64,000 bases of DNA. Source: Phapecoctavirus DIJ07P2. The notes beneath the pieces were generated by a model that was given only the letters and a program-made list of their open reading frames with translations, was not told the origin of the DNA and searched no databases. The translations under genes were made by a program, and so were the position numbers. The stretch is taken from the sequence record OZ035771.1. One strand, given 5' to 3'. Shown one piece after another: positions 15,816 to 50,167 of this stretch (positions within the stretch are counted from its first letter, which is position 1; each line of letters opens with the position of its first letter).

Positions 15816-16094
15816 TTAAAATGGTTCGTTAGTCTCCATCATATATTCTGCTTCTAGTTCTTCCATGTGCTTTCTAAATTGGAAAGCAATTTCTGCTACA
15901 GTTACATTTAAATCTTTTTCAAAAACTTCTGTAGATCCTTCATAAAAACGAATACCGTCAATTAAAAGCCCTCCGTGGTAATCCCAATCACTTTCACGAG
16001 AAAGCGGATTAGGTTCTTCATAATAGTAATCCACCTCCACAACCAAGGCTTTCCCGTTATGAGTGGTGTATTCAAAATCAAAAGTGTTAATCAT
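15816..16094 (-). CDS. hypothetical protein (92 aa)
   Basis: track ORF; tight packing upstream of primase-helicase. Confidence 0.45.
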   Translation of the reverse strand: MINTFDFEYTTHNGKALVVEVDYYYEEPNPLSRESDWDYHGGLLIDGIRFYEGSTEVFEKDLNVTVAEIAFQFRKHMEELEAEYMMETNEPF

Positions 16095-17038: not shown

Positions 17039-17045
17039 ACTTCAC

Positions 17046-18666: not shown

Positions 18667-18674
18667 TTTCTCTC

Positions 18675-19238
18675 CTAGATAGTTTTACTGTGATCGTGAC
18701 AGTGTAATAAATGATGTATAGACCGTTGAGGATTTGTTTGACCTAATCTGTAAATGTGAAACAGATACATTCCCCGCATCAATCCTAACCTCTTTCCTTT
18801 TTCATGTAAAGTGCGAGAGAAAATTAGGTCGAATTGGATAGATTTTTCTTCGAAAGGAATTTCATTCCACAATGATTTTCTAAAAAGCAAAAAGAAACCT
18901 GCCAGAGGTGTTCCGAAAGGAACTTCTTCAACACTCACTTTATGATATTCTCTTGCAATCTTAGCATATTCTATATGGTTTAGAATATCTGGATCATCGT
19001 TAATTTGGTTAGAGAAAAGCTGATAACCACTACCTAACCTGTTACAAGTTGCACCTATTACATCAAAAGGCGGGTTTGACATAACAAGCTCTTCAAGCAT
19101 AGATGGTTGATCAGGTAGGAGGAACATTGTATCGGTATCTCTTAAGCACACCCAACTATCATCTGGAAGAACGGCAATAGCTTCATTGATAGCCTTGCCG
19201 ATATTTCCTGTCAGATAGGGAGTAATATAATAAATCAT
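18675..19238 (-). CDS. putative nucleotide-sugar transferase-like protein
   Basis: CLRDTDTMF acidic motif after N-terminal YYITPYLTGNIGKAINEAI; weak assignment. Confidence 0.3.
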   Translation of the reverse strand: MIYYITPYLTGNIGKAINEAIAVLPDDSWVCLRDTDTMFLLPDQPSMLEELVMSNPPFDVIGATCNRLGSGYQLFSNQINDDPDILNHIEYAKIAREYHKVSVEEVPFGTPLAGFFLLFRKSLWNEIPFEEKSIQFDLIFSRTLHEKGKRLGLMRGMYLFHIYRLGQTNPQRSIHHLLHCHDHSKTI

Positions 19239-20562: not shown

Positions 20563-21165
20563 TTATGGACATTCATACCATTCTTTTTTACCACCGAAGG
20601 CCATCACCACATCACAAATATCCAGACCAGCTTTACCTACACCATATGCTTTCAGCTTCCATTCCCCATCTTCACGAACCAAGGAAGCCACGTGGCAGAT
20701 TGTGTTACCAGCTACTTCAGGAGCCAGGAAGTCAAAATCCAGAATTTCCACATTACGCTCGGAGTCGAAGATTTTAAGCATACCTTCAGAAGCATGACCA
20801 AAACGTTTCAGACCTGTATCATCATCAATGGTCAGAACAAAGGCAATCTCTTGTGCATCAGGAGAGATTTTAGCCAGAGTAATATCAATCTGCTCCATGC
20901 TGCCAGTCCCATCACGAACATCGTCACCAGCGAAGGTAGAACGTTCAGGATCAAACTTGTTAGCATAGCAAACCAGATGACGTGCGGACAGCATTTCAGG
21001 ATTGCCAGCGGCATTATGACGACAAACCAGTGCACTTACATCCAGATCCAGTTTAGAATCAGATTTCCAAGAGAATTCCAGGCGCAGTTCTTTCAGAGCC
21101 GGAGCAACTTTCTTCAGGGAAATTTTTTCGCTAGAGCCTTTTTTCAGGGAAATTTTATCAGTCAT
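20563..21165 (-). CDS. TerD-family protein
   Basis: 200 aa; N-terminal ISLKKGSSEKISLKK and length typical of TerD/general stress 16U family. Confidence 0.65.
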   Translation of the reverse strand: MTDKISLKKGSSEKISLKKVAPALKELRLEFSWKSDSKLDLDVSALVCRHNAAGNPEMLSARHLVCYANKFDPERSTFAGDDVRDGTGSMEQIDITLAKISPDAQEIAFVLTIDDDTGLKRFGHASEGMLKIFDSERNVEILDFDFLAPEVAGNTICHVASLVREDGEWKLKAYGVGKAGLDICDVVMAFGGKKEWYECP

Positions 21166-21180
21166 CTTTTGTCTCCTCTA

Positions 21181-21450
21181 TTATTTAAGTGTAATACCAG
21201 TTACAGTCAATTCTACTTCCAAAAGCTTAGATGTGTTTTGGATTGATACTAATTGTGCATGATGGTTTAGTTCTACAGCAGAATAATCATTTTCCCCATC
21301 ATCTACTTTTAAATAAACAATGATTTCACTAAGGTCTAAACCATTTTCGTCAAATGCATTTTCATAGACGAAAGTATCTCCTACATCCAAATCTTTAATG
21401 GTAAGGCATCGTTTATTTACTTTTTGCTCATCAATTTCGAAGTTTAACAC
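21181..21450 (-). CDS. hypothetical protein (89 aa), paralogue of 22472..22750
   Basis: shared block DLDVGDTFVYENAFDENGLD versus DLGIGDTFMYYDAYEDAGLD; SD aggagg. Confidence 0.45.
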   Translation of the reverse strand: MLNFEIDEQKVNKRCLTIKDLDVGDTFVYENAFDENGLDLSEIIVYLKVDDGENDYSAVELNHHAQLVSIQNTSKLLEVELTVTGITLK

Positions 21451-21679
21451 TTCTTCCTCCTAATGTTATCTCCGGTTTGTATATACGAAGAATTATAGCA
21501 TTTTCATTTTCTTTGTCAACCCATTCTTCATAATCGGGCCATACATGAATCTCTACTCTACTTACAATATCTTCCATTCGCACAGTCCCAATGAAATACT
21601 CTTTGAGACTGCGCATAATGAAAGCTTCTCTCTCGCGCCAATAATTTTCTACGACTTGAGAGGCAAGCTCGTCGATCAT
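21431..21679 (-). CDS. hypothetical protein (82 aa)
   Basis: track ORF; overlaps neighbours at both ends. Confidence 0.4.
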   Translation of the reverse strand: MIDELASQVVENYWREREAFIMRSLKEYFIGTVRMEDIVSRVEIHVWPDYEEWVDKENENAIILRIYKPEITLGGRSVKLRN

Positions 21680-22470
21680 TTTTTAGCACCTACTTTAACA
21701 ACCCACTCTCCGAACTCTTCAGATAAGAGTTTGTCATAAAGCTCTGAATCTGTCAAGTCTAAATCTTTAATGCCAATAAAACCAACATTATCATAAGCAT
21801 TTGCCAGTTCTTTCAGGAAGCCAAACTTCTCATTACCAACGCCAACCATGAACCAATAAATAGGTTTATTCTTATTCTCTTCAATAAGACGACGAACAGC
21901 ACTAGGATCACCATTCTCACCATCCGTCTGGAAGAATACAACACCAGGGGTAACGTCAGCACCTGGTTCAGATACAGCTACAACTTTTTCACGCTCTACA
22001 GACACTGTTTCAGTTTTACCAAGCAGACGATTAAAGAAGCCTTTCTTTGGAGCCTCCTCTTGTACCACTTGTTTAGTGGTAATATATTTGGTAACAGTGC
22101 CAAAATACTCATCGTAGATATCTGCCATTACAGGGGCGTAATTTGTTCCACCTCCGATACGAACATTGCGCATACATTTACCAACATAGTCATCGTAAAC
22201 GTCTGCTGTTGCTGGAGTAAGCTCTTGGGAACTCGTATTGAAGGCCCACATATCAATTTGTTGATTATCGTCGAACAGCATACCAAAAGGAAGCAGTTTA
22301 CCTACAAAATCACTCACTACCCCACTAGAATATAGGCCATGCATACTACCAGAAATATCTAGAGCACATGCTACACGAAGAACAATCTTACCTTCATTCA
22401 GGTTCTTATTCTTTTTCAGAGAGAAAGCAAGGTTTTCTTGACGTTTTTTCAGGCTGATTTTCTCGGACAT
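21676..22470 (-). CDS. von Willebrand factor A (vWA) domain protein, TerY-like
   Basis: MIDAS-type DxSxS motif ALDISGSMHG; N-terminus MSEKISLKK resembles the adjacent TerD-like start. Confidence 0.55.
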   Translation of the reverse strand: MSEKISLKKRQENLAFSLKKNKNLNEGKIVLRVACALDISGSMHGLYSSGVVSDFVGKLLPFGMLFDDNQQIDMWAFNTSSQELTPATADVYDDYVGKCMRNVRIGGGTNYAPVMADIYDEYFGTVTKYITTKQVVQEEAPKKGFFNRLLGKTETVSVEREKVVAVSEPGADVTPGVVFFQTDGENGDPSAVRRLIEENKNKPIYWFMVGVGNEKFGFLKELANAYDNVGFIGIKDLDLTDSELYDKLLSEEFGEWVVKVGAKK

Positions 22471-22471
22471 A

Positions 22472-22750
22472 TTATTTCTCCTTCTTAAGTGTAATATTGG
22501 TAACTTCTAAATCTACTTCCACCATATTTGTATCTGGCGGGATGCAATGAGTATAGCCTCGTTGTGCTAGTGATCCATTAATACAGATCGCACTGTTTGT
22601 GGAATTTTTAATGAACACCAAGTTACGGTAGGTATCCAACCCTGCGTCTTCATAGGCATCATAATACATGAATGTGTCCCCTATGCCAAGGTCTTCGAAA
22701 GCAATAGGTAAATCCTGACACTTTTCTTCTTGAATATTGAATCTAAACAC
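22472..22750 (-). CDS. hypothetical protein (92 aa), paralogue of 21181..21450
   Basis: GTG 22750 with SD gaggagg matches the paralogue's N-terminus; track start 22816 would overlap upstream gene by 74 nt. Confidence 0.4.
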   Translation of the reverse strand: MFRFNIQEEKCQDLPIAFEDLGIGDTFMYYDAYEDAGLDTYRNLVFIKNSTNSAICINGSLAQRGYTHCIPPDTNMVEVDLEVTNITLKKEK

Positions 22751-23306
22751 GCATACCTCCTCTACCAATTTTGAAGCCCAAATCGTAAGCTTCCTTAGTG
22801 ATCTTTTGTAACTCACTTATAGAAAGTGTTACAAGAGGATCATCTTCTTCAATTTCCATCTTGTCATCTTCTGTTTCAATGAGAGTATTATGCACTTTGT
22901 GATAAGGGTTGTCAACACGTTTAAACTTATTCTTTTCTGTGCTGAAAAAACAATCTGGATCTTCTTCACCATCACCCCAACCTTGGTTAGGATCTCCGTC
23001 AGATTGTTCTGTAGGGATTTCACCTGTAAAGTACTTTTCCAGCACCATAGCGATACCGTCTCTTGGATTTGAGGAATGCATTAAATCACAAACCTTACCC
23101 CAATCCATAGCCCATTCGAACCGTTCACGAACGCCATTTTCATCCTCCTTTCCAGAGAAAACACAACCATAACTATCATAGTTGCCATACATCTCTTCAA
23201 TAACAACACCATCCTTCAAAAGAAAGAGATAGCAAGGTGATCCGTCGAAAGAAGTAGAAAGGGCAGCTTTGCCCGATTCCTTACACAAAAAGCTAAAACA
23301 ACCCAT
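22743..23306 (-). CDS. hypothetical protein (187 aa), acidic
   Basis: track ORF; no recognisable motif. Confidence 0.45.
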   Translation of the reverse strand: MGCFSFLCKESGKAALSTSFDGSPCYLFLLKDGVVIEEMYGNYDSYGCVFSGKEDENGVRERFEWAMDWGKVCDLMHSSNPRDGIAMVLEKYFTGEIPTEQSDGDPNQGWGDGEEDPDCFFSTEKNKFKRVDNPYHKVHNTLIETEDDKMEIEEDDPLVTLSISELQKITKEAYDLGFKIGRGGMRV

Positions 23307-23503
23307 TACAAACCCTCCTTCAGATTATCAAGAGCTATAGTGGTTTCACAAAAGTCTCCATACGCTTTATGATGTTCTAGAAAAGCTTCAGGTCCACCCC
23401 AATCATTATCTTGTGTATTCCAACCATCAATAAAAGCATCTTCAATGATTGTGATCAGTTCCTGTCGAGTCAACGTAATGGTATCAGGTTTTGGATTATG
23501 CAT
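23306..23503 (-). CDS. hypothetical protein (65 aa)
   Basis: track ORF; start overlaps upstream stop. Confidence 0.35.
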   Translation of the reverse strand: MHNPKPDTITLTRQELITIIEDAFIDGWNTQDNDWGGPEAFLEHHKAYGDFCETTIALDNLKEGL

Positions 23504-23669
23504 CTTCTTCCTCCTCTAAAATACGAAACCCATAGTTACAATAGTCCTGAAAGGTTTCGTGTGCAAGATCTTCTATATCCTCTTGAGACATATCATCTTC
23601 AATTTCGATATCCACAACCTCATTGCATCCACACCAAGCAGTTTCAATATTCACTCGTAAAGTTTTCAT
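23496..23669 (-). CDS. small acidic protein (57 aa)
   Basis: ATG 23669 in ATGA overlap with upstream stop, SD gaggaag; below track cut-off. Confidence 0.3.
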   Translation of the reverse strand: MKTLRVNIETAWCGCNEVVDIEIEDDMSQEDIEDLAHETFQDYCNYGFRILEEEEDA

Positions 23670-23872
23670 TCTTCTTCCTCATTAAATTCCACATCAGAAA
23701 TAACTTTAAATCTACCAAAGTTACGACAACCTTCATAGATATATCCATCACGACAAGCTGCAAAAATATCTGGAGTTTGTAGCTGGGTCATTGGGGCAAA
23801 GCGTTTCTCTTCGTCATAACGAACACCTATTTCTCCAGCTTGTTCGTCAAGCATGTATACACGGATTCTCAT
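23666..23872 (-). CDS. hypothetical protein (68 aa)
   Basis: track ORF; acidic C-terminus. Confidence 0.35.
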   Translation of the reverse strand: MRIRVYMLDEQAGEIGVRYDEEKRFAPMTQLQTPDIFAACRDGYIYEGCRNFGRFKVISDVEFNEEEE

Positions 23873-24981
23873 TTACCCAACCCCTTCTTAACAGCGTCAA
23901 CCATCCCATCTTCGAGAGATTGAACTTCATTGATATAATCAACACGGGCAGCACGGGCTTCCGTATTGATGCGGTTAGTTTCTTCCAACATCTTAACCAA
24001 GTTTTCCTGATCGTGACGCAGAGTTTCAATATCCAACACTTGACGGTTAGCCAGTGCTGCTGCTTCGATCTGATTCTGTGTGGCAAGATCGCTACCCAGT
24101 TTAATTGCCAGGTTAAATTCATCAAGAACGTTATTCTGTGTCTCTGCGGCTTTCATTTGACGTAAGCTCTCAATATACATTGAGAAGTTAGCAGAGTAAG
24201 CAGGAATAACATTATTTACTATGTTACGCGCAGATCGCATTAAGCTTGCAGAAACTTTTTGCATACCTTGCACACGTGGTCCCATTTGGACACACAGTAG
24301 GCGCAATGCTTTTAAATCCGCAATACGAATCTCCAGAAGATCCAAAGTATCTCGGATCGCTTGTCGCTGTTCTACCGCATCTTCTGGAAGAGCAGCCAAA
24401 GCTTGTTCTTCTTTTTCATAGGTTGCTGTTAGAAGCTGCATATCTCGGTTCAAACTTGCAGCATATTGTCCAATAGCTTGATGTAGCTTTTCAAGATATA
24501 CCAAGGAATCTTCTTCTTTGCGAATATCCATTTGAAGGTTCTTTACCAACTCTTCAATACGGTTATTAACATTATCAAACTCCCCAAACAGGTCTTCTTT
24601 CATACCCATAACTTTTTTAATGAGTTTAGTAATACCTTTGCTTTGTTTAATAGAGTTTGGATCAAGTTGTTTTGCCTGTTTAATCAAAGCTGTGAGTCGT
24701 TCACTCATCTGATCGCCTTGATTACTACGTTGATGTTTTAATACCTCGGCATTCAAGGAACGCAAGGTTGTTCCTGCCTCTGCCCCGATCTCTTCGATCT
24801 CTTGTCGTGTCATAGAAGGTAAAACTGGAACTTCTTGCGGTGCCGCTGGTGCATAAACAGGACTGGCATCTAACACGCTTGGAGCGAATACAGATTTACT
24901 TGCATCTGTTGTTGCAGCAAATACGCTCATTTCAGGTTTCTTCTGACAGCCAGTAGCTGCTTTTAAAAATGGACTTGTCAT
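23869..24981 (-). CDS. TelA-like (toxic anion resistance family) coiled-coil protein
   Basis: 370 aa, predominantly helical/charged, size and genomic context (next to TerD, vWA, TerC) fit TelA/KlaA family; weak by sequence alone. Confidence 0.4.
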   Translation of the reverse strand: MTSPFLKAATGCQKKPEMSVFAATTDASKSVFAPSVLDASPVYAPAAPQEVPVLPSMTRQEIEEIGAEAGTTLRSLNAEVLKHQRSNQGDQMSERLTALIKQAKQLDPNSIKQSKGITKLIKKVMGMKEDLFGEFDNVNNRIEELVKNLQMDIRKEEDSLVYLEKLHQAIGQYAASLNRDMQLLTATYEKEEQALAALPEDAVEQRQAIRDTLDLLEIRIADLKALRLLCVQMGPRVQGMQKVSASLMRSARNIVNNVIPAYSANFSMYIESLRQMKAAETQNNVLDEFNLAIKLGSDLATQNQIEAAALANRQVLDIETLRHDQENLVKMLEETNRINTEARAARVDYINEVQSLEDGMVDAVKKGLGK

Positions 24982-25568
24982 TCTTCATTCTCCTCTTCTG
25001 CATCTCTTATATATGGTGAAACACCGTACTCTTTAGCTACTTTAACCCAATCGTCCCATTTATACAACCATAATTTTCCTTCGGTCCCTTCTTTATCTGA
25101 TTTCAACCACATATTAGGTTGCTTACCTGGGTACATGCGATTAGGTTTACGATTATAACCTCTAACACATCTTGTCGCAAACCTATCTACCAGAACAAGA
25201 ACATATTTATATTCGTGGTTCAACGGCTCTTTGGAAGTGGCTTTAGGATTAGCCCCTAACTCTGCTGCCAGTTTTTGCCAATGAGCACCGTGTCTACTAA
25301 ACTTACCCATACAACCATCAATAGCATGAGCAATTTCGTGCTTCATTGTATCCACGATCATATCTCTTGTAGAGTTCTTATGCAAGTGCCAATTTACAAC
25401 AACAATTTTATCTCGGTAATTGCACCAACCAAAAGAGTTATTCACTTTGTTTCTAACGCAAGCTTTATATCCTGCTTCACGTAACATGTTGTAGTAAACA
25501 GGAAAATCTTCTTTTATTTCCTGCATCACTTCCCACCACAAGAGTTGCAAGTCTCTCTCGGTATGCAT
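24978..25568 (-). CDS. SprT-like zinc metallopeptidase-domain protein
   Basis: HExxH motif in MKHEIAHAIDG followed by GAHWQKLAAELG. Confidence 0.4.
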   Translation of the reverse strand: MHTERDLQLLWWEVMQEIKEDFPVYYNMLREAGYKACVRNKVNNSFGWCNYRDKIVVVNWHLHKNSTRDMIVDTMKHEIAHAIDGCMGKFSRHGAHWQKLAAELGANPKATSKEPLNHEYKYVLVLVDRFATRCVRGYNRKPNRMYPGKQPNMWLKSDKEGTEGKLWLYKWDDWVKVAKEYGVSPYIRDAEEENEE

Positions 25569-25571
25569 AAC

Positions 25572-26165
25572 TTACACCTTAAAAGTGAAATGCGTGGTCG
25601 TGGCTTCAAAATCAGGACCAGATAAACGTGCACTGAAATCTGAAATATTTGTAATTAAAAAGCTTTTATGCATACCTAACACAGCCACGCTTTCAATATC
25701 TTCTACTAACATTTCAATCATGTTAGAAACATGGCTGAACGTAGGGTTTTGTTTTTTGATGGTGTAGAAAGAAAGATTCCCACCTGCTGTATAAGATACC
25801 TCTTCAAAATCTTTAATCGTATATTGTGTGCCATCAGTAAAGAAAATGGTAGCTTTATTAGTAGCACGTTTCTTGTTTTTTGGTCCTTTTTTACGTTTAC
25901 TGCGAGTAGGCAAACCGTTTGGGAACACCATAGCTACAAATTCTTCAGGAGAAACCTCCTTACCGAAATCATAACCATAAGAAACAGCGTCTATAAACTC
26001 GTCGTCTTCATTTTTAAAATAATGAAAATAGGGCCAATTTGAGAGATTATCGAGCATCTTATGCTCATCCACAGCAGAGAACGTATCCCTCAAAGCACGT
26101 GTGATTTGCAAAGCATTAGGCAAACTTTTAACACCTGTAATGGAAGTACGAATAGAAATTGTCAT
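25572..26165 (-). CDS. hypothetical protein (197 aa)
   Basis: track ORF; basic patch RSKRKKGPKNKKR. Confidence 0.45.
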   Translation of the reverse strand: MTISIRTSITGVKSLPNALQITRALRDTFSAVDEHKMLDNLSNWPYFHYFKNEDDEFIDAVSYGYDFGKEVSPEEFVAMVFPNGLPTRSKRKKGPKNKKRATNKATIFFTDGTQYTIKDFEEVSYTAGGNLSFYTIKKQNPTFSHVSNMIEMLVEDIESVAVLGMHKSFLITNISDFSARLSGPDFEATTTHFTFKV

Positions 26166-26179
26166 TGTTTTTCTCCTTA

Positions 26180-26617
26180 TTAACGTCGCTTGCTACGAGA
26201 TGAACTCTTTTTACTTAAAGGGCTATTGTAAGATTTACGAGTTGTATAGCTACTATTTGTTTTAAAAGTTTGTCTCGGCTTTTCATAAGTTTTTGTCTCT
26301 TGTTTAGGCTTACCATAAAAATTAGTTTTCGGTTTAGGTGTATTATAATGCTTATTAATAATCGTTCTGTTATCGTTATAATCCCCGCCACTACGATTAC
26401 TACCACCGCTCATCATATGCCCTAACAACATACCTGTAGCAAACTCACCAACACCGCTACTACTAGAACCGCCACCATTGTTGATAATAGTTGTATCTCC
26501 ATCAGATCCTTGTTGGGCGTATTGTTGAGGAGGTTGTTGGTATTGTGCAGGATTTGTTTCATCCTCGCAAGCTGTTAAAAAGATACAACCAATTAAAATC
26601 AGGGCTAGTTTTTTCAT
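26180..26617 (-). CDS. lipoprotein with glycine-zipper and Gly/Ser-rich region
   Basis: start moved to ATG 26617 (SD gaggaaag); signal peptide plus lipobox MKKLALILIGCIFLTAC; GVGEFATGMLLGHMMSGG. Confidence 0.5.
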   Translation of the reverse strand: MKKLALILIGCIFLTACEDETNPAQYQQPPQQYAQQGSDGDTTIINNGGGSSSSGVGEFATGMLLGHMMSGGSNRSGGDYNDNRTIINKHYNTPKPKTNFYGKPKQETKTYEKPRQTFKTNSSYTTRKSYNSPLSKKSSSRSKRR

Positions 26618-26804
26618 ATTTGCTTTCCTCATTTTGACTATTAATACATCTGTGTTTGAAATCTCCAGAGAAGCAATAAATTTGCTCTCCATCTCGGTAT
26701 AAACTCACTTTACTGCCGTTGATTACGCTTGTCAATACAAAAATTACAACAAACAACCCTATTGCAAAACAGATATTTTCAAACACAACCAACAAGTATT
26801 TCAT
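26559..26804 (-). CDS. small membrane protein candidate (81 aa)
   Basis: track ORF; hydrophobic N-terminus; ATGA overlap with upstream stop; 3' end overlaps lipoprotein start by about 59 nt, so uncertain. Confidence 0.3.
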   Translation of the reverse strand: MKYLLVVFENICFAIGLFVVIFVLTSVINGSKVSLYRDGEQIYCFSGDFKHRCINSQNEESKYEKTSPDFNWLYLFNSLRG

Positions 26805-27151
26805 TTTAAAAATACCTCATCATCAGTTTCATTATCCCAGAAGAACAAATCCCAACCATTTGGATCGTTCCATTTGGCTGCTGGAGAAGTCCATATTTGC
26901 TCGATATCAATATTCAAAACTTCACCGTTTCGTTTTGAAACAGCTTTAGTTAATTCCCAACGGGATACAGGCTCCACTTCCCCTGAACCACTCCCACAAC
27001 AAGCTACCACATTAGGAGGCAAATTAATTGGATCTTTGGTCACGATCATAACGCTTACCCCAGGGTAAACTTTTGAAAGATAATCTAAAACGTAATCCAC
27101 ATCACCAGATAAATCCCAAACAAGTTCTTGAATTTCATCAAAATTATTCAT
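26801..27151 (-). CDS. hypothetical protein (116 aa)
   Basis: track ORF; acidic, Trp-rich. Confidence 0.45.
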   Translation of the reverse strand: MNNFDEIQELVWDLSGDVDYVLDYLSKVYPGVSVMIVTKDPINLPPNVVACCGSGSGEVEPVSRWELTKAVSKRNGEVLNIDIEQIWTSPAAKWNDPNGWDLFFWDNETDDEVFLK

Positions 27152-27193
27152 AAGTCTCTCCTATAAAATAGCCTCCCGAAGGAGGCTCATCTA

Positions 27194-28168
27194 TTAAACA
27201 GCAGCTTCTTCTTTTTCAGGGAAGATAAAGCTTGCAATAACACCAAGAGCTAATGTGCCTAGAACAATCATCAGACTTACGTTAGGGGAAATATCATGCG
27301 GGAGGAATGACCACTTGGCATGAAGTGTTTCACCGAACGGGTGATACATAAGTTTAGCACCGACAAACACCAGAACCACAGCAACAGCTTTCTCTAAGTG
27401 AACCAGATATTTCACAGCTACACTTAACACAAAGAAAAGTGCACGTAAACCAAGAACAGCCATCAACATTGCAGAATAAACTAGCAGAGGTTCTTGTGTC
27501 ACACCGATCACAGCCGGAACTGAATCAAAAGAGAAGACAATATCTGTAAGCTCAATTACAAACACACAAAGAAGAGCAGGAGTTGCATATTTAATACCAT
27601 TCTTAATGGTAATGAACTTTTCACCATCCAGTGCATTGTGCACAGGCAGAACTTTACCTACTAAACGAACAGCCCAATGCTTAGAGTAATCAATATCCTC
27701 TTCTTCGTCACCACCTTTGATGATAGCCACGGCAGACCAAGCTACAATCAAACCGAACAACACTTGGACCGACCAATGAAGGTTAAACAAAGCGGTCCCT
27801 GCTGCAACAAAAATACCTCGGAAGACAATGGCTCCTGCAATCCCCCAAAGTAGAATCTTATGTTGGAGATGTGTGCTCTTAATTCCAAAGCTTGCAAAAA
27901 TTGCCATGAACACCATTAGGTTATCTACAGAAAGACTCTTTTCCAACACATAGCCACTTAGGAAAAGCGCGGCAAACTCTTTACCATGTTCTACCCAAAT
28001 GAATGCGTAATACCCTAAAGCTAAAGCAATCCAAAAAACAGACCAAAGCAAAGCAGATTTAATTCCAATTTCTTTATTCTCTTTATGACCAAAGAAATCG
28101 ATACCAATAGACAATGCTAAAATACCAACTAAAACAACTACATCAATAATTGGGAAACCGAGTTGCAT
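27194..28168 (-). CDS. TerC-family integral membrane protein
   Basis: multiple TM helices; characteristic SLSVDNLMVF and FSFDSVPAV motifs; ATG 28168 with SD gagaggag. Confidence 0.6.
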   Translation of the reverse strand: MQLGFPIIDVVVLVGILALSIGIDFFGHKENKEIGIKSALLWSVFWIALALGYYAFIWVEHGKEFAALFLSGYVLEKSLSVDNLMVFMAIFASFGIKSTHLQHKILLWGIAGAIVFRGIFVAAGTALFNLHWSVQVLFGLIVAWSAVAIIKGGDEEEDIDYSKHWAVRLVGKVLPVHNALDGEKFITIKNGIKYATPALLCVFVIELTDIVFSFDSVPAVIGVTQEPLLVYSAMLMAVLGLRALFFVLSVAVKYLVHLEKAVAVVLVFVGAKLMYHPFGETLHAKWSFLPHDISPNVSLMIVLGTLALGVIASFIFPEKEEAAV

Positions 28169-28185
28169 TCTTTTCTCCTCTCTTT

Positions 28186-28244
28186 GCGGGGAACTATTCC
28201 CCGCTTCATGTGATATATCTTACTCTTTTTAAGAACTATGTCAA
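28186..28244 (-). promoter_or_regulatory. sigma70-like promoter plus 5' GC stem-loop cassette (same design as early-gene array) upstream of TerC gene
   Basis: minus strand TTGACA-N16-TAAGAT then atatcacatgaa and stem-loop gcggggaatagttccccgc, SD, ATG 28168. Confidence 0.5.
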
Positions 28245-28247
28245 CAC

Positions 28248-28469
28248 TTATTTTGTTGAATGAGAGGAAAAGATTCCTCGTAATACCGCCAAAATAAACG
28301 AAACACAAACCACGGTCCAGAAGGTTACTGGGACAGTGATATCTGCATGACCCATAACTTCAGCAACATAGTTGTAAGCCAGCAACAGTAACCAAGCTGG
28401 AATCAAACTAAGCATAAAAGCAATAACAAAAAAGCTTACCACTGCAACAATACCTGCAAAAACACCCAT
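28248..28469 (-). CDS. small membrane protein (73 aa)
   Basis: track ORF; two hydrophobic helices. Confidence 0.45.
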   Translation of the reverse strand: MGVFAGIVAVVSFFVIAFMLSLIPAWLLLLAYNYVAEVMGHADITVPVTFWTVVCVSFILAVLRGIFSSHSTK

Positions 28470-28481
28470 ACTAATCTCCTC

Positions 28482-28955
28482 TTAAAGTTTATAAATAGTC
28501 ACATCGTGACCTGTTTTTACTAAAGTTTCTTCAATCATCACTTGGATGATAGCCCAATTACCTCCGGCATGTCCCGCTCCAATCATAGGTAAACCGATCT
28601 TACATTTTTGGTCACGGAGAAGCAAATCATTAGCCATAGCTATTAGTGCATCGTAAAGTGCATCATAGTCCAACTGACGACCTTTACTATTGTATCCATA
28701 ACGATACTGTCCATAAAGGTTGTATACCATAGGGTTAGGATAATCTTCTGGTTCCCCTAAACTAAAAGAACCAAGCTTTTTCTGGTTTCCTGCTCCTGTA
28801 GCTAAATCTGCTTCGTATGCATATGGAAACGCATATTTTATTTGTGGGGCAATACCTGCCCCCATATTACACATACAGTTGCAACAATGAGCAATAACAG
28901 TTACTTCACCTGCTTTAGCGGCATCAATAAGATTACCTGTTTTCATTTTAAGCAT
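28482..28955 (-). CDS. macro domain-like protein
   Basis: start moved to ATG 28955 (SD taaggag) to avoid 92-nt overlap; IAHCCNCMCNMGAGIA and IGLPMIGAGHAGG resemble macro-domain glycine-rich blocks. Confidence 0.4.
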   Translation of the reverse strand: MLKMKTGNLIDAAKAGEVTVIAHCCNCMCNMGAGIAPQIKYAFPYAYEADLATGAGNQKKLGSFSLGEPEDYPNPMVYNLYGQYRYGYNSKGRQLDYDALYDALIAMANDLLLRDQKCKIGLPMIGAGHAGGNWAIIQVMIEETLVKTGHDVTIYKL

Positions 28956-28968
28956 TTTTAGCTCCTTA

Positions 28969-29796
28969 TTACAGAATGTGTTGTTTTGTGTAACGATCCA
29001 AGAATTCAAAGTTTTCAGCATACTTTGAAATTCGGTTGTAACCTTCTCCCAAGCATCCAAAGAAAAGTTGCTCTACATAGTAGTGTGGCAATTGACTAAG
29101 AATGATTTTGAAGTCTTCATGATTTTGGCCCATAAGATATTTAATAGGACGAACAAGACACTGTGCATCACGTTCTTCATTAATCATTTTAACAAACGCT
29201 TCTGGTGTATTAATGTAGTTAAAATTCAGTTTAGCTTCGGTATCTGCTTGATTACCTTCATATTTTGCAAAATACAGGAAGTAAACATCATTTTTAACTT
29301 GATTTTCATCAAGGATCTCAATCAGTTTGTCTTCATGCGTTCCAGTGATATTTACATCATCAATGAATACAAGCTTCTTATCACCCCAGAATTCTTTGTT
29401 ACAGTAGAATGTATCCCCATCAATAAGTTTCTTACGACTAGCTTTATCCAAGAAGCCATAATCGTTAATATAGCTAACTTTACGATGAATAATATCCAGT
29501 TCTGCTGAACGACCTTGATTATATTGTGATTGCAACATGTTAAAGTAATTAATAAAATGATCTGTCATCATTGTTGCAGCATTATGCACATGGTTGTAAG
29601 GAGAAGGAATGATAACAAATTGTTCCCCAATATGTTTCATTGCCACTTGAGCAAAAAACTGAAGTGCCAATTCTTTACCCATACGACGCGCGGCTTGGTT
29701 ACTACCAAATTTCAATTTTGAATAATCTTGGATATCAAAAGTAGCAGTTTCCAGGTCATCAAATTTATTTGCAAAAATTTGAGTTTGATTACGCAT
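28969..29796 (-). CDS. phosphoribosyltransferase (PRTase)-like protein
   Basis: PRPP-binding-type motif KLVFIDDVNITGTHED. Confidence 0.4.
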   Translation of the reverse strand: MRNQTQIFANKFDDLETATFDIQDYSKLKFGSNQAARRMGKELALQFFAQVAMKHIGEQFVIIPSPYNHVHNAATMMTDHFINYFNMLQSQYNQGRSAELDIIHRKVSYINDYGFLDKASRKKLIDGDTFYCNKEFWGDKKLVFIDDVNITGTHEDKLIEILDENQVKNDVYFLYFAKYEGNQADTEAKLNFNYINTPEAFVKMINEERDAQCLVRPIKYLMGQNHEDFKIILSQLPHYYVEQLFFGCLGEGYNRISKYAENFEFLDRYTKQHIL

Positions 29797-30445
29797 TTAC
29801 AATTTCTCCTCTTTTAAGTTTCTCTAGTAAGTCGTTAGGGTTCTTAATATGACAGAAGTTAAATCCTAAGTCAACACATTTTCCATCATATTCTTCACTA
29901 TCGCCTACGTGCAATACTTCGTGCCCTAACAGAGGGATCGGAGAATATGTGAGCGTGCGAGCAAAGAATCGCGGATCTGGTTTACAAAGTAAAGCTTCAT
30001 CCGAGAAATGGGTGAACTCAAAACAATTCCAACTATCAAACTTACAAGCACGACGCAGGATATCCCCTGATATAAAGTTGGTATTGCTCTTAATACTCAA
30101 ATCATAACGTCCCGAAAGATACAGCAAGTACATCGGCAGATCCACGGCTACGTGTGGTGGAAACTTAAGGAACCACTGTTCACACTCGAAACGAAGCTTT
30201 GCAGACTTCCAAGGTGTTATCCCAAGTTCAGAACCAAGTCTTTCCCAGGCGTATGCTGCACACTCGGCTTTGCCTTGAAGTGCTGCATTATCCAGTTCCT
30301 TTTTGATCTTCTTATAAGCTGCTCTTGCTTCCACTTCCGTAATATCTCCATATTTTGCGATAGTCCAGGCTCGCATGTCTGCGTAATTGGAGTTTGCTGT
30401 GATCAGTGTGTTCCATACATCAAAAGAGATATGTTTAATAGTCAT
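29789..30445 (-). CDS. HAD-superfamily hydrolase (dehalogenase-like subfamily)
   Basis: motif I ISFDVWNTLI, motif III LCKPDP, motif IV HVGDSEEYD. Confidence 0.55.
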   Translation of the reverse strand: MTIKHISFDVWNTLITANSNYADMRAWTIAKYGDITEVEARAAYKKIKKELDNAALQGKAECAAYAWERLGSELGITPWKSAKLRFECEQWFLKFPPHVAVDLPMYLLYLSGRYDLSIKSNTNFISGDILRRACKFDSWNCFEFTHFSDEALLCKPDPRFFARTLTYSPIPLLGHEVLHVGDSEEYDGKCVDLGFNFCHIKNPNDLLEKLKRGEIVNA

Positions 30446-30446
30446 A

Positions 30447-31052
30447 TTAAGCCCACCATGCGTCTAAGTTAAGATTACTGTCCACTACCACTTGTTCTAT
30501 GTGGTAGCCTTTTATCTGTATCCCACTGTTCAAGAGCATATCATACGCTTCATTGAAACGCAACTTATCTTCTGCGGAATATAAGCGAGCATTATAAAAT
30601 CGGTAATCAATTTCTTCAGCATTAGAAGAAATACGGAAGAAGTTTGTTTCTACTTCGGGATCACTTGCTGAAGTCTTAATGTGAACTTCTCCATAATTTT
30701 CTTTACTTAGATCCATGAAAAGAACACAGGCAACATGTTTAAACATTCGTTCCAGTTTGTAACGAACAACATTGAAACCTGCATTCTCAAGTTTTTCTAC
30801 ACACTGCAACATTAAAGTAGTGTCGAGATCGCTTTGATACTTTGTTAACATACGATCACGTTGAGACTTTGTATCCCGATGTAAATCAATTGTTGTGCAT
30901 TTGGCACCAATAATCTTAGCTGCTTTCATCAACTCTTCAGAACTAACGTTAGATAAAGTAAGATGAAAATGGGCTTTCCACACTTTTTTAGCAGGGACAC
31001 CAAAAGATTTATCCCCATTATTCGGCATGTTGACTACTACACTATGTTGCAT
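30447..31052 (-). CDS. hypothetical protein (201 aa)
   Basis: track ORF; ATG 31052 with SD gaggag; possible HxT-type motif AHFHLTL, too weak to assign. Confidence 0.45.
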   Translation of the reverse strand: MQHSVVVNMPNNGDKSFGVPAKKVWKAHFHLTLSNVSSEELMKAAKIIGAKCTTIDLHRDTKSQRDRMLTKYQSDLDTTLMLQCVEKLENAGFNVVRYKLERMFKHVACVLFMDLSKENYGEVHIKTSASDPEVETNFFRISSNAEEIDYRFYNARLYSAEDKLRFNEAYDMLLNSGIQIKGYHIEQVVVDSNLNLDAWWA

Positions 31053-31272: not shown

Positions 31273-31743
31273 TTAATCTGATTGCCAACCACTTGCCGTT
31301 TTGGTCCATAATCTTTGATTATCTGACCCTCTGAAAGGTTTTGTAGTTGGATTGTTTATTTCATACTTTCCGTCTACAATAATGTCAACAAGATTTTTAA
31401 TATATAAAGGCACTTCCTCAAAAGTATATCCTGTATACACCATTATATCTTTGCTTGACCCATAAACGTCTCTAACCTTTTCTATAAGGCTTTTAACATT
31501 GTAAATATTCTGCGGATCTAATGGTTCTCCTCCTAAAATTGTTAAACCTTTTACAAACGGTCTTGACAAATCTTTTAAAACTTGCTCTACATTTTCGTGA
31601 GTAAACGGTTTCCCGTAAGAATAAGACCAGGCTTTTTGGTTAAAACAGCCACGACAACCGTGGCTACAACCACTAACCCAGAGGGAGCACCTAACTCCCT
31701 CGCCATTAATAAGATCTACAGGTTCATATCCTGCAAAATTCAA
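31273..31743 (-). CDS. nrdG: anaerobic ribonucleotide reductase activating protein (radical SAM)
   Basis: CxxxCxxC cluster CSHGCRGC near N-terminus; about 156 aa; immediately downstream of nrdD; TTG start in TTGA overlap with nrdD stop. Confidence 0.8.
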   Translation of the reverse strand: MNFAGYEPVDLINGEGVRCSLWVSGCSHGCRGCFNQKAWSYSYGKPFTHENVEQVLKDLSRPFVKGLTILGGEPLDPQNIYNVKSLIEKVRDVYGSSKDIMVYTGYTFEEVPLYIKNLVDIIVDGKYEINNPTTKPFRGSDNQRLWTKTASGWQSD

Positions 31744-32711
31744 AGATGTTTCTCCCTTTGCAAAACTTCCTGCATTTTACCTTTGTTGTAAGGGCGTGAA
31801 TTAGGGGCAGAAAGATACCCTGACACACGTCTAACTACAGAAATAGTTTCTTCTTCATGGTTGCCACAATCAGGACACTCAAACCCTTTAGCCGTTGCCT
31901 TAAATTCTCCATGAAAACCACACTTAAAGCATTGATCCACGGGCTGATTAATACCAAAATAGTGAATATGTTCATAAGCGTAGTCTACTAAAGTCTCCAA
32001 AGCTTCTAAGTTATTCTTTAAGTTTGGTGTTTCGACATAACTTATGTTACCACCATTGCTAATCTGTGCAAAACCTGCTTCATAATCCCATTTTTCAAAA
32101 GGATTTGTTACCAACCATACAGGTTGGTGAAAAGAGTTGGTAAGATAATCTCTTTCTACCAAACCTGGGTATTTTTCATTTAAAGCTGTTGCAAACTTAT
32201 AGCACAAGGATTCTGCTGGAGTTCCATAAAGACTAAACGCCAAATTAGATCGTTCTTTAAACACAGCACACACATCTTTCATATGTTGCAGAATGCTTTT
32301 ACCAAGTTCCTTTTTATCTTTTTCTTCTGGATAAAGGATTTCCAAAGCTTCGGCAAGACCTACATAACCAATACTAATAGAAGCATAACCACCTTCAAAC
32401 AAAACACCAATTTCATCATTGGCATTTAAACGCGCTAAAGCCCCTTCCATGAAAAGAATAGGGTTTTCAGATGCTTTGGTATGCCTAATACGGTTTACAC
32501 GTAACATGTGAGCATCGTAGGCTATCTCCATATGTTTATTAAGGAGGTCGGTGAAAGATTCTCCTTTACTTCTCGCTTCCGCAGCAATCAGAGGTAAATT
32601 GATAGAAACTACTCCAAGGTTGAATCGTCCATCATATTTTTCTCCTTGCTCTGTTGCATAGTATGACAAGAAACTTCTACACATTATGTTCAAAGTGGCT
32701 CGCAAGGCCAC
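31740..32711 (-). CDS. nrdD: anaerobic ribonucleotide reductase, C-terminal part (glycyl-radical domain)
   Basis: C-terminal Cys4 (CFKCG...CPDCG) and glycyl-radical motif RVSGYL; separated from N-terminal part by HNH endonuclease insertion. Confidence 0.75.
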   Translation of the reverse strand: MALRATLNIMCRSFLSYYATEQGEKYDGRFNLGVVSINLPLIAAEARSKGESFTDLLNKHMEIAYDAHMLRVNRIRHTKASENPILFMEGALARLNANDEIGVLFEGGYASISIGYVGLAEALEILYPEEKDKKELGKSILQHMKDVCAVFKERSNLAFSLYGTPAESLCYKFATALNEKYPGLVERDYLTNSFHQPVWLVTNPFEKWDYEAGFAQISNGGNISYVETPNLKNNLEALETLVDYAYEHIHYFGINQPVDQCFKCGFHGEFKATAKGFECPDCGNHEEETISVVRRVSGYLSAPNSRPYNKGKMQEVLQREKHL

Positions 32712-33442
32712 TCCCGCACCATTACGTGCTGCTGCATGTCACCATGCAGATCAGACTATATCTTCATGCTTAAAGCATGTCTACCATTTGGGGTGTCATA
32801 GGCTTACACCCTACGCTGCTACATTCATCACAGCTAGTCGTTAGGCATTTCGTAACAGAACTCATAATCATAATTATTTGGTGCTCCTTGCTTTAAGATT
32901 GCAGATATTCTTTTTCTGTCCAACCCTAAAGCGTCAGCACAACATCTCAGACTTTTAAAGTAAAAAACTTCACCAGTAGCCTTATGAGTAGCTTTTACAC
33001 TGTGACACCTTGTGTAGAAAGCATAACAGTTATTATCGTAACCCTCTTGCGTGTTGTCTGGACAAGATCCCCACTCAAGATTGTATACACTGTTGTCTTT
33101 CCTATTGTCACCTTTATGCTTCACATAAGGTAAATTGTCTGGATTGGGTAAAAACGCTTCAGCTACAAGTCTGTGCACCCGAAAGCAAACAGTTTTCTTG
33201 TTTTTACGTATTCTGACAAGTTGGTATCCTGTGTTTATTTCTTCCCACGAGCGAAGGATTCTTTCATCCTTATACCTGGTACAATAAACATTTCCAAGCT
33301 CGTCAATTTCATACCCTTCAAAATCACGAATTTGTTTTCTCATATCAGTACCCCCTTCTTCTGTGTTGGGAGTTCTGTTACGTTTAGCACGGGATTGTCT
33401 CTGTTGAGAGTTCCCCCGTTTAGGCAGATTTTACATGAGCAG
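32712..33442 (-). mobile_element. intervening sequence in nrdD carrying an HNH homing endonuclease gene (group I intron or free-standing insertion)
   Basis: about 730 nt between the two NrdD reading frames; roughly 100-120 nt of non-coding flank on each side of the HNH ORF. Confidence 0.5.
32834..33343 (-). CDS. HNH homing endonuclease
   Basis: FRVHRLVAEAFLPNP...KHKGDNRKDNSVYNLEW pattern typical of phage HNH endonucleases. Confidence 0.65.
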   Translation of the reverse strand: MRKQIRDFEGYEIDELGNVYCTRYKDERILRSWEEINTGYQLVRIRKNKKTVCFRVHRLVAEAFLPNPDNLPYVKHKGDNRKDNSVYNLEWGSCPDNTQEGYDNNCYAFYTRCHSVKATHKATGEVFYFKSLRCCADALGLDRKRISAILKQGAPNNYDYEFCYEMPND

Positions 33443-34324
33443 TTATAGTTTACCCATACTCGTAACGGTACCATCTGCTGATCCCGTAACTTCTTTGTTC
33501 AAAGGGACAGAAATAAAATCTGGATAAATACGATCAGCACAACATGCCAAAGCTTGTTGCTTAAGGTCGTAGTTAGGATCACTAGGTTTCATGTTAACAC
33601 CTTCTTGTAAAAAGAAAATAACTTTAGGGAATACAGGCGTTACATGATCTTTGCCTAGACCGTTACTATGCACTTTAAGATAGTTAGCTGTGATCATTCT
33701 GCCAAAAACAGAGGTATCCAGACCCATACTGATTGTAATAAAAGGAGATTGTCCATTAACACTCATTAAAGTGTTAACCTGATACAAAAGAGTTTGCATA
33801 GCGTCATATACATCTTGTTCGGTCATTTCTAGGGCTTCTTTCCTTGCATAACAACCGTAGCGACGTTTGGTTATCTCCATGTTTTTAAGGAAACTGGCTT
33901 CAACATAAGGACTAAGACCTTTATCAATGTGCGCACACGTCTGACCTCCATACTGACTGGAGGCAACAGCTTGAATGATTTGAGTTAGCACTGTAGTAGC
34001 TACTCCAATAGATTTTGGTTTTTCTATCTGTGCAGCACCGATCTTAAAACCATTCTCTAACATATCTTGATAATTAACAAGACAACAGTTTGTAAGAGGA
34101 GAGAGTAGGTAATCCAAGTCGTGAATATGTCCAAAACCTTCTGTATGCCATTCTGACAAGTTTTTTGGCAGTATCTGTGTCATTGCCATATGTTTGCTTA
34201 AAATCCCCGCCAAGAGATCTCTATGCGTGTTAACGAGGTGGGAAGGTTTGTTTGCATTCTCTCTAGTGTATGTTTCTGAAGTGCGATCTAAAAAAGAAAA
34301 AACATCTTGGTACAAATCTTTCAT
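33443..34324 (-). CDS. nrdD: anaerobic ribonucleotide reductase, N-terminal part
   Basis: 293 aa frame immediately upstream of insertion; combined length with C-terminal part about 616 aa, as expected for NrdD; assignment rests on context and length. Confidence 0.55.
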   Translation of the reverse strand: MKDLYQDVFSFLDRTSETYTRENANKPSHLVNTHRDLLAGILSKHMAMTQILPKNLSEWHTEGFGHIHDLDYLLSPLTNCCLVNYQDMLENGFKIGAAQIEKPKSIGVATTVLTQIIQAVASSQYGGQTCAHIDKGLSPYVEASFLKNMEITKRRYGCYARKEALEMTEQDVYDAMQTLLYQVNTLMSVNGQSPFITISMGLDTSVFGRMITANYLKVHSNGLGKDHVTPVFPKVIFFLQEGVNMKPSDPNYDLKQQALACCADRIYPDFISVPLNKEVTGSADGTVTSMGKL

Positions 34325-49448: not shown

Positions 49449-49628
49449 ATGGCACGTTTAGCAGACCATGAAATCTTTAAACCTATTCTGAACCACTATG
49501 ATGAACTTAAAGCAGTGTTGGATTGTTATAGAGAGGATGAAGAACGTTTGGAAGTCAATCTTAAGATAGTTCTGATGAAAGCTTTTCAAGACGGGCAAGC
49601 TAAAGTTTTAGAAGGCATGAAAAAATGA
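49449..49628 (+). CDS. small hypothetical protein (59 aa)
   Basis: ATG 49449 with SD aaaggag, preferred over track start 49413. Confidence 0.4.
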   Translation: MARLADHEIFKPILNHYDELKAVLDCYREDEERLEVNLKIVLMKAFQDGQAKVLEGMKK

Positions 49629-50167
49629 GAATAACTGATGAATATGTATTCTTCTTTTCACATAAAGATGTGTTTAGTAATTGGTATATTGCACCCTTTA
49701 CAGAAACTGAACCAGGTTACAATGAGACTTTCTGTTGTGTTGAGCAATATATGATGTGGCGTAAGGCTTTGCTGTTCAAGGATCATGCGATTGCAGCAGC
49801 TATCCTTGATCACTCAACTATACGTGACAACGAGAGGAAACAAGCATACTACAAACGTATGGGTCGAGCGGTATCTGGTTTTAATAATGATATGTGGGAA
49901 GAGAACCGTGAGCGTATTGTTATGCGAGGTTTATGCTTGAAATATGTACAGAATCCAGATTTGTATGCAGACTTACACCTTTACCAATACAAAACGTTTG
50001 TTGAAGCAAGTCCTTACGATAAGGTTTACGGTATTGGAATGGGAATGTATGAACCAGGGGTGCTAAATCCGGTCAACTGGAAAGGGCAAAATCTTTTAGG
50101 TAAATATCATAACAAACTGATCGAAATACTTTTCCCAGACAAAATACCGCAAAGACGATATTTGTGA
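49625..50167 (+). CDS. NADAR (YbiA-like) domain protein
   Basis: FSNWYIAPF ... VEQYMMWRKALLF ... YKRMGRAV ... WEENRERIVMRGLCLKYVQNPDL ... EASPYDKVYGIGMG matches YbiA/NADAR pattern. Confidence 0.65.
   Translation: MRITDEYVFFFSHKDVFSNWYIAPFTETEPGYNETFCCVEQYMMWRKALLFKDHAIAAAILDHSTIRDNERKQAYYKRMGRAVSGFNNDMWEENRERIVMRGLCLKYVQNPDLYADLHLYQYKTFVEASPYDKVYGIGMGMYEPGVLNPVNWKGQNLLGKYHNKLIEILFPDKIPQRRYL

Follow-up and report, generated by a model that had tools for sequence, protein, structure and literature searches.

A predicted Ter biosynthetic enzyme pair and a candidate AdfM-type macrodomain as neighbours in a phAPEC8-like coliphage

Do three consecutive minus-strand genes of a coliphage, encoding a macrodomain, a phosphoribosyltransferase (PRTase) and a HAD-fold hydrolase, form a single pathway, or do they serve separate purposes? 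The genes occupy positions 28482–30445 of a 64,000-nucleotide stretch of Phapecoctavirus DIJ07P2 (sequence record OZ035771.1), which was analysed as a whole and is hereafter called the window. The initial annotation of this locus had offered two alternatives. The three activities might build and dephosphorylate a phosphoribosyl adduct in a small-molecule pathway linked to the adjacent Ter genes, or they might remove ADP-ribose modifications and, with a NADAR gene at 49625–50167, counter ADP-ribosylating host defences. Our results suggest that each alternative was right for a different subset of the genes, the first for the hydrolase and the PRTase and the second for the macrodomain and the NADAR protein. 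We put the probability at roughly 0.65 that the interval holds two functionally separate units, a Ter pair of HAD and PRTase_3 and an AdfM-type macrodomain, which are mere neighbours in a long minus-strand operon. Both modules have been predicted or shown for relatives before, and the reading brings nothing conceptually new.

The six peptide motifs behind the original assignments were all found in minus-strand open reading frames (ORFs) of this interval at their expected positions, and the family matches of the three proteins are well above chance. The HAD-fold hydrolase (29789..30445, minus strand, 218 residues), the first gene of the putative Ter biosynthetic pair, matches phrog_14393 'hydrolase' at 3e-117. 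The PRTase (28969..29796, minus strand, 275 residues) matches PRTase_3 (PF15610) at 9e-42, and the macrodomain protein (28482..28955, minus strand, 157 residues) matches both Macro (PF01661) and phrog_335. The catalytic residues are kept on alignment in the phosphoribosyl pyrophosphate (PRPP) loop of the PRTase, in motifs I, III and IV of the hydrolase and at N26 and Q83 of the macrodomain, the exception being the Asp+2 of the hydrolase, which is replaced by Trp. The three genes had been described as overlapping. This holds for the hydrolase and the PRTase, where the stop of the former overlaps the start of the latter by 8 nucleotides (...GTAAATGCGTAA) and the two genes are translationally coupled; the macrodomain gene overlaps neither and is separated from the PRTase gene by 13 nucleotides. 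It starts at ATG 28955, 6 nucleotides past an AAGGAG Shine-Dalgarno site of its own that lies right behind the PRTase stop codon (TAAGGAGCTAAAA precedes the ATG), and published relatives annotate a 474-nucleotide macrodomain gene with the same start. A longer, 192-residue ORF from TTG 29060, inside the PRTase gene, was rejected as a mechanical artefact, given this Shine-Dalgarno site and the annotation of the relatives.

The PRTase is a ComF-like type I enzyme of the PRTase_3 family. Its match to PF15610 (143.7 bits against a cut-off of 28.7) covers residues 11–266 of 275. In the PRPP loop, L142-VFIDDVNITGTHE-155 (DDVxITGTHE), residues D146, D147, T151, G152, T153, H154 and E155 are unchanged in all of 45 homologues (44–79% identity), and the same is true of the S65-P-Y-N68 loop and of residues in a flexible segment at 100–130. 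Fold comparison returned the type I PRTase fold, with ComF as the best structural match, followed by generic type I PRTases at 6–19% identity; a sequence search of the PDB with PRTase_3 returned nothing meaningful. The identity to H. pylori ComFC (PDB 7P0H) is 9%. The zinc-finger N-terminal domain of ComFC was not detected in PRTase_3, which has instead about 90 residues of family-specific C-terminal helices. Because no close relative has been characterised as an enzyme, the acceptor of PRTase_3 cannot be inferred.

The profile scores of the hydrolase are mixed. The Pfam Hydrolase model (PF00702) gave 21.2 bits, below its cut-off of 26.4, and the HAD-IA subfamilies of NCBIfam were all below cut-off for the window protein; a rhizobial member of the same family passes both Pfam Hydrolase (38.2 bits) and HAD_2. 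The window protein also matches a solved HAD protein, PDB 2om6, at 7.6e-5, and the two have an identical FDVWNTL motif. Motif I (D9-V-W11-N-T13), motif III (K155) and motif IV (G181-D182...D187) can be recognised, and an alignment of 8 homologues shows no change at D9, T13, K155, D182 or D187. The general acid/base of canonical HAD phosphatases and mutases is an Asp at position +2 of motif I. W11 occupies this position in the window protein and is invariant in 8 phage sequences, and a W or Y fills it in another 17 homologues from phages and bacteria; the compared stretch of 8 rhizobial sequences ended before the motif. Among the PRTase_3-linked HAD proteins, the motif reads DLWLT in Bacteroidales, DVWVT in Pedococcus, DVWQT in Peribacteria and DFYNT in one phage contig. 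As judged from these alignments, the missing Asp+2 is a family trait and not the mark of a decayed copy. Phosphoryl chemistry is still plausible because the Mg-binding motif IV is retained, and we infer either an activated phosphate, whose leaving group would not have to be protonated, or a residue of the cap domain that takes over from the Asp. Since Asp+2 is lost throughout the linked HAD family, a plain nucleotide phosphatase step should not be taken for granted.

The distribution of the two genes indicates that they form a cassette. A tblastn search of 50,697 phage records detected PRTase_3 in 156 of them, and its carriers include Phapecoctavirus, Justusliebigvirus (phi92), Klebsiella relatives, the Xanthomonas jumbo phage XaC1, Rhizobium phages, and jumbo phages of Caulobacter and Brevundimonas. 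Among the listed matches, those outside Phapecoctavirus are mostly annotated as phosphoribosyltransferase/hydrolase. The hydrolase gene lies immediately upstream of PRTase_3, usually overlapping it, in the annotated regions of phi92, XaC1, RHph_Y65 and CcrColossus, and the same arrangement was seen in metagenomic contigs, including those of jumbo phages. Scans of GTDB genomes and IMG/VR added 36 loci. In nearly all fetched loci, including those of rhizobia, Bacteroidales, a Peribacteria metagenome-assembled genome and the actinobacterium Pedococcus, the hydrolase directly precedes PRTase_3, and the order recurs in about 45 loci of unrelated phages and bacteria.

The cassette is often found in the company of Ter genes. 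Within 20563–30445 of the window, six Ter components are encoded on a single strand: a TerD-domain protein (20563..21165, minus strand; PF02342, 3.2e-28), a vWA-TerF-like protein (21676..22470, minus strand; PF10138, 1.6e-37), TelA (23869..24981, minus strand; PF05816, 1.7e-33), a TerC-family integral membrane protein (27194..28168, minus strand; PF03741, 3e-40), the HAD hydrolase and PRTase_3. In the other fetched loci, the window proteins served as tblastn queries for Ter genes and macrodomains (E<=1e-4); divergent copies may escape at this threshold, and absences are of lower confidence than presences. By this measure, TerC, TerD, TelA or vWA-TerF genes adjoin the pair in several independent lineages. 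The arrangement is TelA-vWA-TerC-x-HAD-PRTase-TerD in two loci (L008 and L040), vWA-TerD-TerD-x-TelA...HAD...PRTase in a third (L010) and TerD-TerD-vWA-HAD-PRTase in Pedococcus (L034). Two TerD genes lie near the pair in two Bacteroidales loci (L027 and L032), and Ter genes flank it in four more (L044, L045, L047 and L048). This conserved gene context supports the earlier suggestion that the PRTase and the hydrolase belong to a small-molecule pathway tied to the Ter genes.

Reading activities and role from the observed folds, motifs, family memberships and gene-context statistics, we propose that HAD and PRTase_3 constitute a minimal two-enzyme biosynthetic module of the Ter stress-response system, with the remaining Ter genes within 10 kb. 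The ComF-like type I PRTase would join PRPP to a base-like acceptor to give a ribonucleotide-like compound, on which the HAD hydrolase would then process a phosphoryl group. At the membrane protein TerC, the TerD, TelA and vWA components may then sense the nucleoside-like ligand so formed, and the likely purpose would be an altered envelope of the infected cell, for example one that excludes superinfecting phages. A minimal two-enzyme Ter module was reportedly predicted by Anantharaman, Iyer and Aravind in 2012, and PF15610 is presumably the Pfam family defined from that analysis. PMC11994780, which relays the 2012 analysis, treats PRTase plus HAD as the part of the Ter biosynthetic module that never varies. 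Such modules have been noted in phages, and a role in superinfection competition was proposed for them (Iyer et al. 2021, PMC7824862); the Ter pair has already been predicted in the literature (PMC7824862, PMC11994780). A nucleoside-like Ter ligand and a resistance to tellurite, phages or colicins are likewise predictions (PMC7824862, PMC11994780, PMC8115787). The window block resembles the minimal module in its PRTase_3 family, its obligate HAD-PRTase pair and the co-occurrence of TerC, TerD, TelA and vWA-TerF. It differs in being the two-gene version, as ATP-grasp, a second PRTase and an HpcH-like lyase were not seen in the block. In addition, no TerB was seen, the carrier is a strictly lytic 150-kb coliphage and the hydrolase has its Trp at Asp+2. 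A literature search on phi92 or Phapecoctavirus and tellurite found nothing relevant.

Two settings of the pair from other genomes may be recorded here. In Sinorhizobium terangae (L024, 8834–11591), an apparent small operon consists of a 151-residue protein of unknown function, HAD, PRTase_3 and a ClpP-like protease, with Ter genes undetected nearby; the protease recalls the StiP protease of Bacillus Ter clusters. In XaC1-like jumbo phages (L006, 8967–11168; L003, 7941–9527), a 530-residue DUF2828/DUF7788 protein follows the pair and a weak 2H-SAK hit was seen; the surroundings, with RNA ligase, CCA-adding enzyme, Nudix and ribosome-hibernation genes, form an RNA-repair-like, non-Ter context.

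The macrodomain points in a different functional direction. It is a stand-alone domain of the Tk.4/AdfM family that falls in the ALC1-like/SCO6735 clade, with H23, N26, Q83 and a G126-AGHAGG loop as its recognisable features. The match to PF01661 (23.7 bits) is just above the cut-off of 22, and that to phrog_335 is strong (3.7e-54). The Tk.4 protein of RB27, a T4-type tk.4 product, belongs to the same PHROG (1.3e-65) and is 38% identical to the window protein by BLASTP (E=1e-20). The best relatives in the PDB are SCO6735 (7e-13), Thermus aquaticus DarG (1.6e-6) and human TARG1 (8e-6), joined by BT1257, all of the ALC1-like clade. DarG models were the sole NCBIfam and PADLOC matches, and they covered the macrodomain part only: NF048014 scored 38 bits against an equivalog cut-off of 250, over profile positions 2–147 of 338. 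The protein is homologous to the macrodomain of DarG from DarTG2. It differs from a DarG antitoxin in that its 157 residues include neither the catalytic Lys80 nor a C-terminal DarT-binding domain, and no DarT gene adjoins it. N26 aligns with N22 of DarG and N27 of SCO6735, and Q83 with Q85 of SCO6735 and the Gln of Tk.4; DarG and TARG1 carry Lys at the latter position.

The residues of the active site make SCO6735 (PDB 5E3B) a useful comparison. It is the best solved-structure match, and the H-x-x-N and G-Q motifs are conserved between the two, including the essential Asn and Gln; it is a chromosomal protein of Streptomyces coelicolor, with about 34% identity to the window macrodomain. SCO6735 cleaves thymidine-linked ADP-ribose on DNA, for which Asn27 and Gln85 are essential, and its Gln85 sits where DarG and TARG1 have their catalytic Lys (PMC9411070). 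Two phage relatives have been studied directly. T4 tk.4 is required on DarTG2-expressing hosts, as found by a transposon screen and a clean knockout, and was named adfM (bioRxiv 10.1101/2025.11.20.689424), and the AdfM of PhiKZ, gp104, strips DarT2-made ADP-ribose from DNA (PMC13309987). Like these, the window protein is a stand-alone phage macrodomain of about 155 residues in phrog_335 and an orphan antitoxin-like gene, and it has the Asn...Gln active-site signature in common with Tk.4. It differs from Tk.4/AdfM in that the window protein, which is known here from its sequence, is closer to SCO6735 and BT1257 than to DarG, and from PhiKZ AdfM in having Gln where a Lys (K78) is reported.

The macrodomain is most likely an orphan DNA ADP-ribosylglycohydrolase directed against DarTG2, a DarG/SCO6735-like enzyme that would remove DarT2-type ADP-ribose from the thymidines of phage DNA. 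The NADAR gene (49625..50167, plus strand) was confirmed by matches to PF08719 (8e-35) and TIGR02464 (114 bits against a cut-off of 73.7), which place its AdfN-like product in the same superfamily as the AdfN proteins T4 30.3, Bas32 and Bas60. Diverse phage NADARs reverse the ADP-ribosylation of guanosine by DarT1 and were recruited as anti-DarTG1 enzymes several times (PMC11825919). The NADAR gene is a probable partner of the macrodomain in countering DNA ADP-ribosylation and would do likewise for DarT1-type guanosine adducts. Homology to the characterised AdfM (T4 Tk.4, PhiKZ gp104) and AdfN proteins is thus what supports the earlier proposal that the two genes act against ADP-ribosylating defences. 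A literature search on Stephanstirmvirinae and DarTG found nothing relevant.

Two patterns of divergence were noted in this region. The macrodomain is the most diverged protein of the block relative to phage EF1-1, with 90% amino acid identity compared with 97–100% for its neighbours, and this would be consistent with faster turnover. In another related contig (L014), the HAD protein is 77% identical and the flanking PRTase and 201-residue proteins are 99–100% identical. The two patterns suggest that alleles may be exchanged by recombination in the region.

We next consider whether the three genes could instead form a true three-enzyme pathway, as had been proposed, in which PRTase_3 builds a phosphoribosyl or ADP-ribose-like adduct, the hydrolase dephosphorylates it and the macrodomain binds or hydrolyses the product or its precursor, such that the Ter metabolite would be ADP-ribose-related at least in Stephanstirmvirinae. 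Macrodomains do recognise ribose-phosphate ligands, Phapecoctavirus and Justusliebigvirus have HAD, PRTase and macrodomain in the same order despite macrodomains that are only 50% identical, and no terminator-like site separates the genes. The wider distribution argues against this pathway. The macrodomain adjoins PRTase_3 in one phage subfamily only (the Stephanstirmvirinae-type contigs L001, L002, L014 and L035–L039 among the fetched loci), and an adjacent copy was found by tblastn (E<=1e-4) in none of about 34 other HAD-PRTase loci, the nearest being a 30%-identical macrodomain 6.4 kb away (L044). Even within the subfamily, two unrelated genes of 127 and 188 codons lie between PRTase and macrodomain in one related phage (L037). 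The macrodomain family was found in 2,976 phage records (tblastn), among them T4-like, FelixO1-like, PB1-like, Vi1-like, Rheinheimera and Vibrio phages; this is about 19 times the 156 records of PRTase_3, and most of these phages lack PRTase_3. No macrodomain fusion occurs among the 120 best PRTase_3 homologues, and the T4 homologue was demonstrated to act as a stand-alone protein against DarTG2. The single pathway is very unlikely on this evidence. Its narrower form, in which the macrodomain of Stephanstirmvirinae alone was recruited into the Ter pathway, is a longer shot still: the signal made by PRTase_3 and HAD would be an ADP-ribose- or phosphoribosyl-type molecule that the macrodomain binds, edits or destroys, and the hydrolase would act on a phosphoanhydride or activated phosphate and not on a simple monoester. 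If this were true, the Ter signal would become open to chemical study for the first time. Two other possibilities concern one unit each. The HAD-PRTase_3 pair could serve nucleotide or nicotinamide adenine dinucleotide (NAD+) salvage, aiding replication or countering NAD+-depleting defences, and not Ter signalling. The pair lies close to the anaerobic ribonucleotide reductase genes in the window, two genes from a nicotinamide mononucleotide adenylyltransferase/Nudix gene in Rhizobium phage Y65, and among RNA ligase, CCA-adding enzyme and Nudix genes in XaC1-like phages. We consider salvage quite unlikely, given that the PRTase matches neither nicotinamide or nicotinate PRTases nor the PRPP-synthetase-like enzymes of known phage NAD+ pathways in sequence or fold (ComF is best), that the recurrent partners in independent lineages are TerD, TelA, TerC and vWA genes, and that the hydrolase lacks the usual acid/base residue of a phosphatase.

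The macrodomain, for its part, might be an ADP-ribose-1''-phosphate phosphatase of the Poa1p type, or a protein or RNA de-ADP-ribosylase, for example one that regulates phage ADP-ribosyltransferases or counters RNA-targeting ADP-ribosyltransferases such as CmdT, and not a hydrolase of ADP-ribose on DNA. The family goes by 'phosphatase' in PHROG and in many GenBank records, SCO6735 has some activity on ADP-ribosylated protein (PMC9411070), and in the view of the AdfN authors RNA ADP-ribosylation might also be a target of some phage counter-defences (PMC11825919). A comparison with the Appr>p processing pathway (Tpt1/KptA, 2H phosphodiesterase and Poa1p-type macrodomain) found neither the 2H partner nor a macrodomain of the Poa1p type, and the characterised AdfM proteins point to DNA; we regard this possibility as unlikely. 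Several observations do weigh against a division into a Ter pair and an AdfM-type macrodomain. The macrodomain has no more than 38% identity to Tk.4, and the Lys that is catalytic in DarG and TARG1 is missing from it; its substrate could therefore be RNA- or protein-linked ADP-ribose. It stands next to PRTase in phages from phAPEC8 to phi92 and is probably co-transcribed with it, and a lineage-specific functional link between the two is a possibility. The pair has no detectable Ter neighbours in rhizobia, XaC1-like phages and Rhizobium phages, and its link to Ter is frequent and not obligatory. The literature on Ter and PRTase gave no biochemical data, on product or on substrate class, for any PRTase_3 or linked HAD protein. 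Finally, Asp+2 is replaced by Trp in the hydrolase, and plain dephosphorylation of a nucleotide to a nucleoside is therefore not assured. Taken with these points, two separate units, a Ter pair and a counter-defence macrodomain, remain the reading that we favour.

The product of the Ter module has been in question since the 2012 prediction, and this lytic coliphage, which is amenable to laboratory culture and has a compact set of six genes (TerD, vWA-TerF, TelA, TerC, HAD and PRTase_3) on a single strand, is a convenient system in which to study it. With the macrodomain and the NADAR protein, Stephanstirmvirinae would join the phages in which orphan antitoxin-like enzymes are directed at both types of DarTG, a point that bears on the host range of therapeutic phages like phAPEC8 and phi92. 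What is still of interest at this locus is the Ter metabolite, the unusual active site of the hydrolase and the slight possibility that the macrodomain has been drawn into the pathway in this subfamily.

The neighbourhood of the macrodomain varies among relatives. The phi92 protein (gp185) has a 100-residue N-terminal extension. Of the two genes between PRTase_3 and the macrodomain in L037 (9122–10519), the one for the 188-residue protein has a start that resembles this extension (L002, 7851–8567) and, as judged by eye, an end like a MazG-type pyrophosphohydrolase motif (ECADWL...ECADV). Since the extension is fused in phi92 and the 188-residue gene is separate in L037, the upstream partner of the macrodomain is variable.

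By its sequence, the window is that of a phAPEC8-like Escherichia coli myovirus (subfamily Stephanstirmvirinae), since a 4.2-kb region with the three genes has 97–98% nucleotide identity to many Phapecoctavirus genomes, PNJ1809-36, nepoznato and phAPEC8 among them. The minus strand carries genes from about 8 to about 44 kb. In the order of transcription, the genes are nrdD with a putative endonuclease ORF inside, nrdG, a 74-residue ORF, a 201-residue ORF, HAD, PRTase_3 and the macrodomain; these are followed by a 73-residue membrane ORF, TerC, several small or unknown ORFs, a SprT-like protein, TelA, the vWA-TerF-like protein, TerD and endolysin. No terminator-like site was found between the 201-residue gene, HAD, PRTase and the macrodomain, which is weak evidence as the regional counts of promoters and terminators were not above shuffled expectation. 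The four genes are probably co-transcribed, as is usual for unrelated early genes of large phages. Between the macrodomain and TerC lies a gene for a small predicted membrane protein of 73 residues (28248..28469, minus strand), which is conserved in one related phage. A sigma-70-like promoter (TTGACA-16-TAAGAT; 28217..28244, minus strand) precedes TerC at the same place as an annotated promoter in the phAPEC8 record, and a GC-rich, terminator-like hairpin with a T-run (AGCCTCC-TTCG-GGAGGCT; 27170–27187, minus strand) lies just after the gene. TerC apparently forms a transcription unit of its own, from the promoter at 28244–28217 to the hairpin at 27187–27170; one relative annotates the gene as alx-like.

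The 201-residue protein (30447..31052, minus strand) is encoded directly upstream of HAD, outside the conserved module, and the stop of its gene is 1 nucleotide ahead of the HAD start codon. It had no Pfam match and resembles the 'AbiEi' models of PADLOC, two of which it matches at about 1e-12 over almost the whole protein. Only 34 homologues make up its narrow family, all without an informative name, and H28, H30, T32, H124 and K126 are invariant among them. An AlphaFold2 model (mean predicted local distance difference test score of 82.9) shows a duplicated ferredoxin-like fold; the PDB matches are to generic ferredoxin-like domains only, and the structural relatives are uncharacterised proteins of Rheinheimera, Aeromonas and Acinetobacter ME3 phages and of giant viruses. 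Homologues elsewhere do not lie beside PRTase or HAD, and on one contig the gene adjoins an Acb1 gene with a NADAR gene near. We treat the 201-residue gene as unrelated to the Ter pair and possibly another orphan antitoxin-like counter-defence gene.

Two further features of the window were noted. The nrdD gene is seemingly split into two ORFs (33443–34324 and 31740–32711, minus strand) with a 169-residue ORF (32834–33343) between them; nrdD of EF1-1 is uninterrupted (1815 nucleotides), and phi92 annotates a spliced variant. From its position, the 169-residue ORF is taken as a homing endonuclease, and the arrangement is probably that of a mobile intron with its endonuclease. At 16094–19238 (minus strand), between the primase/helicase and the endolysin/TerD genes, relatives annotate four consecutive glycosyltransferases (EF1-1 gp189–192), which could relate to the glycosylation of DNA or of a surface.

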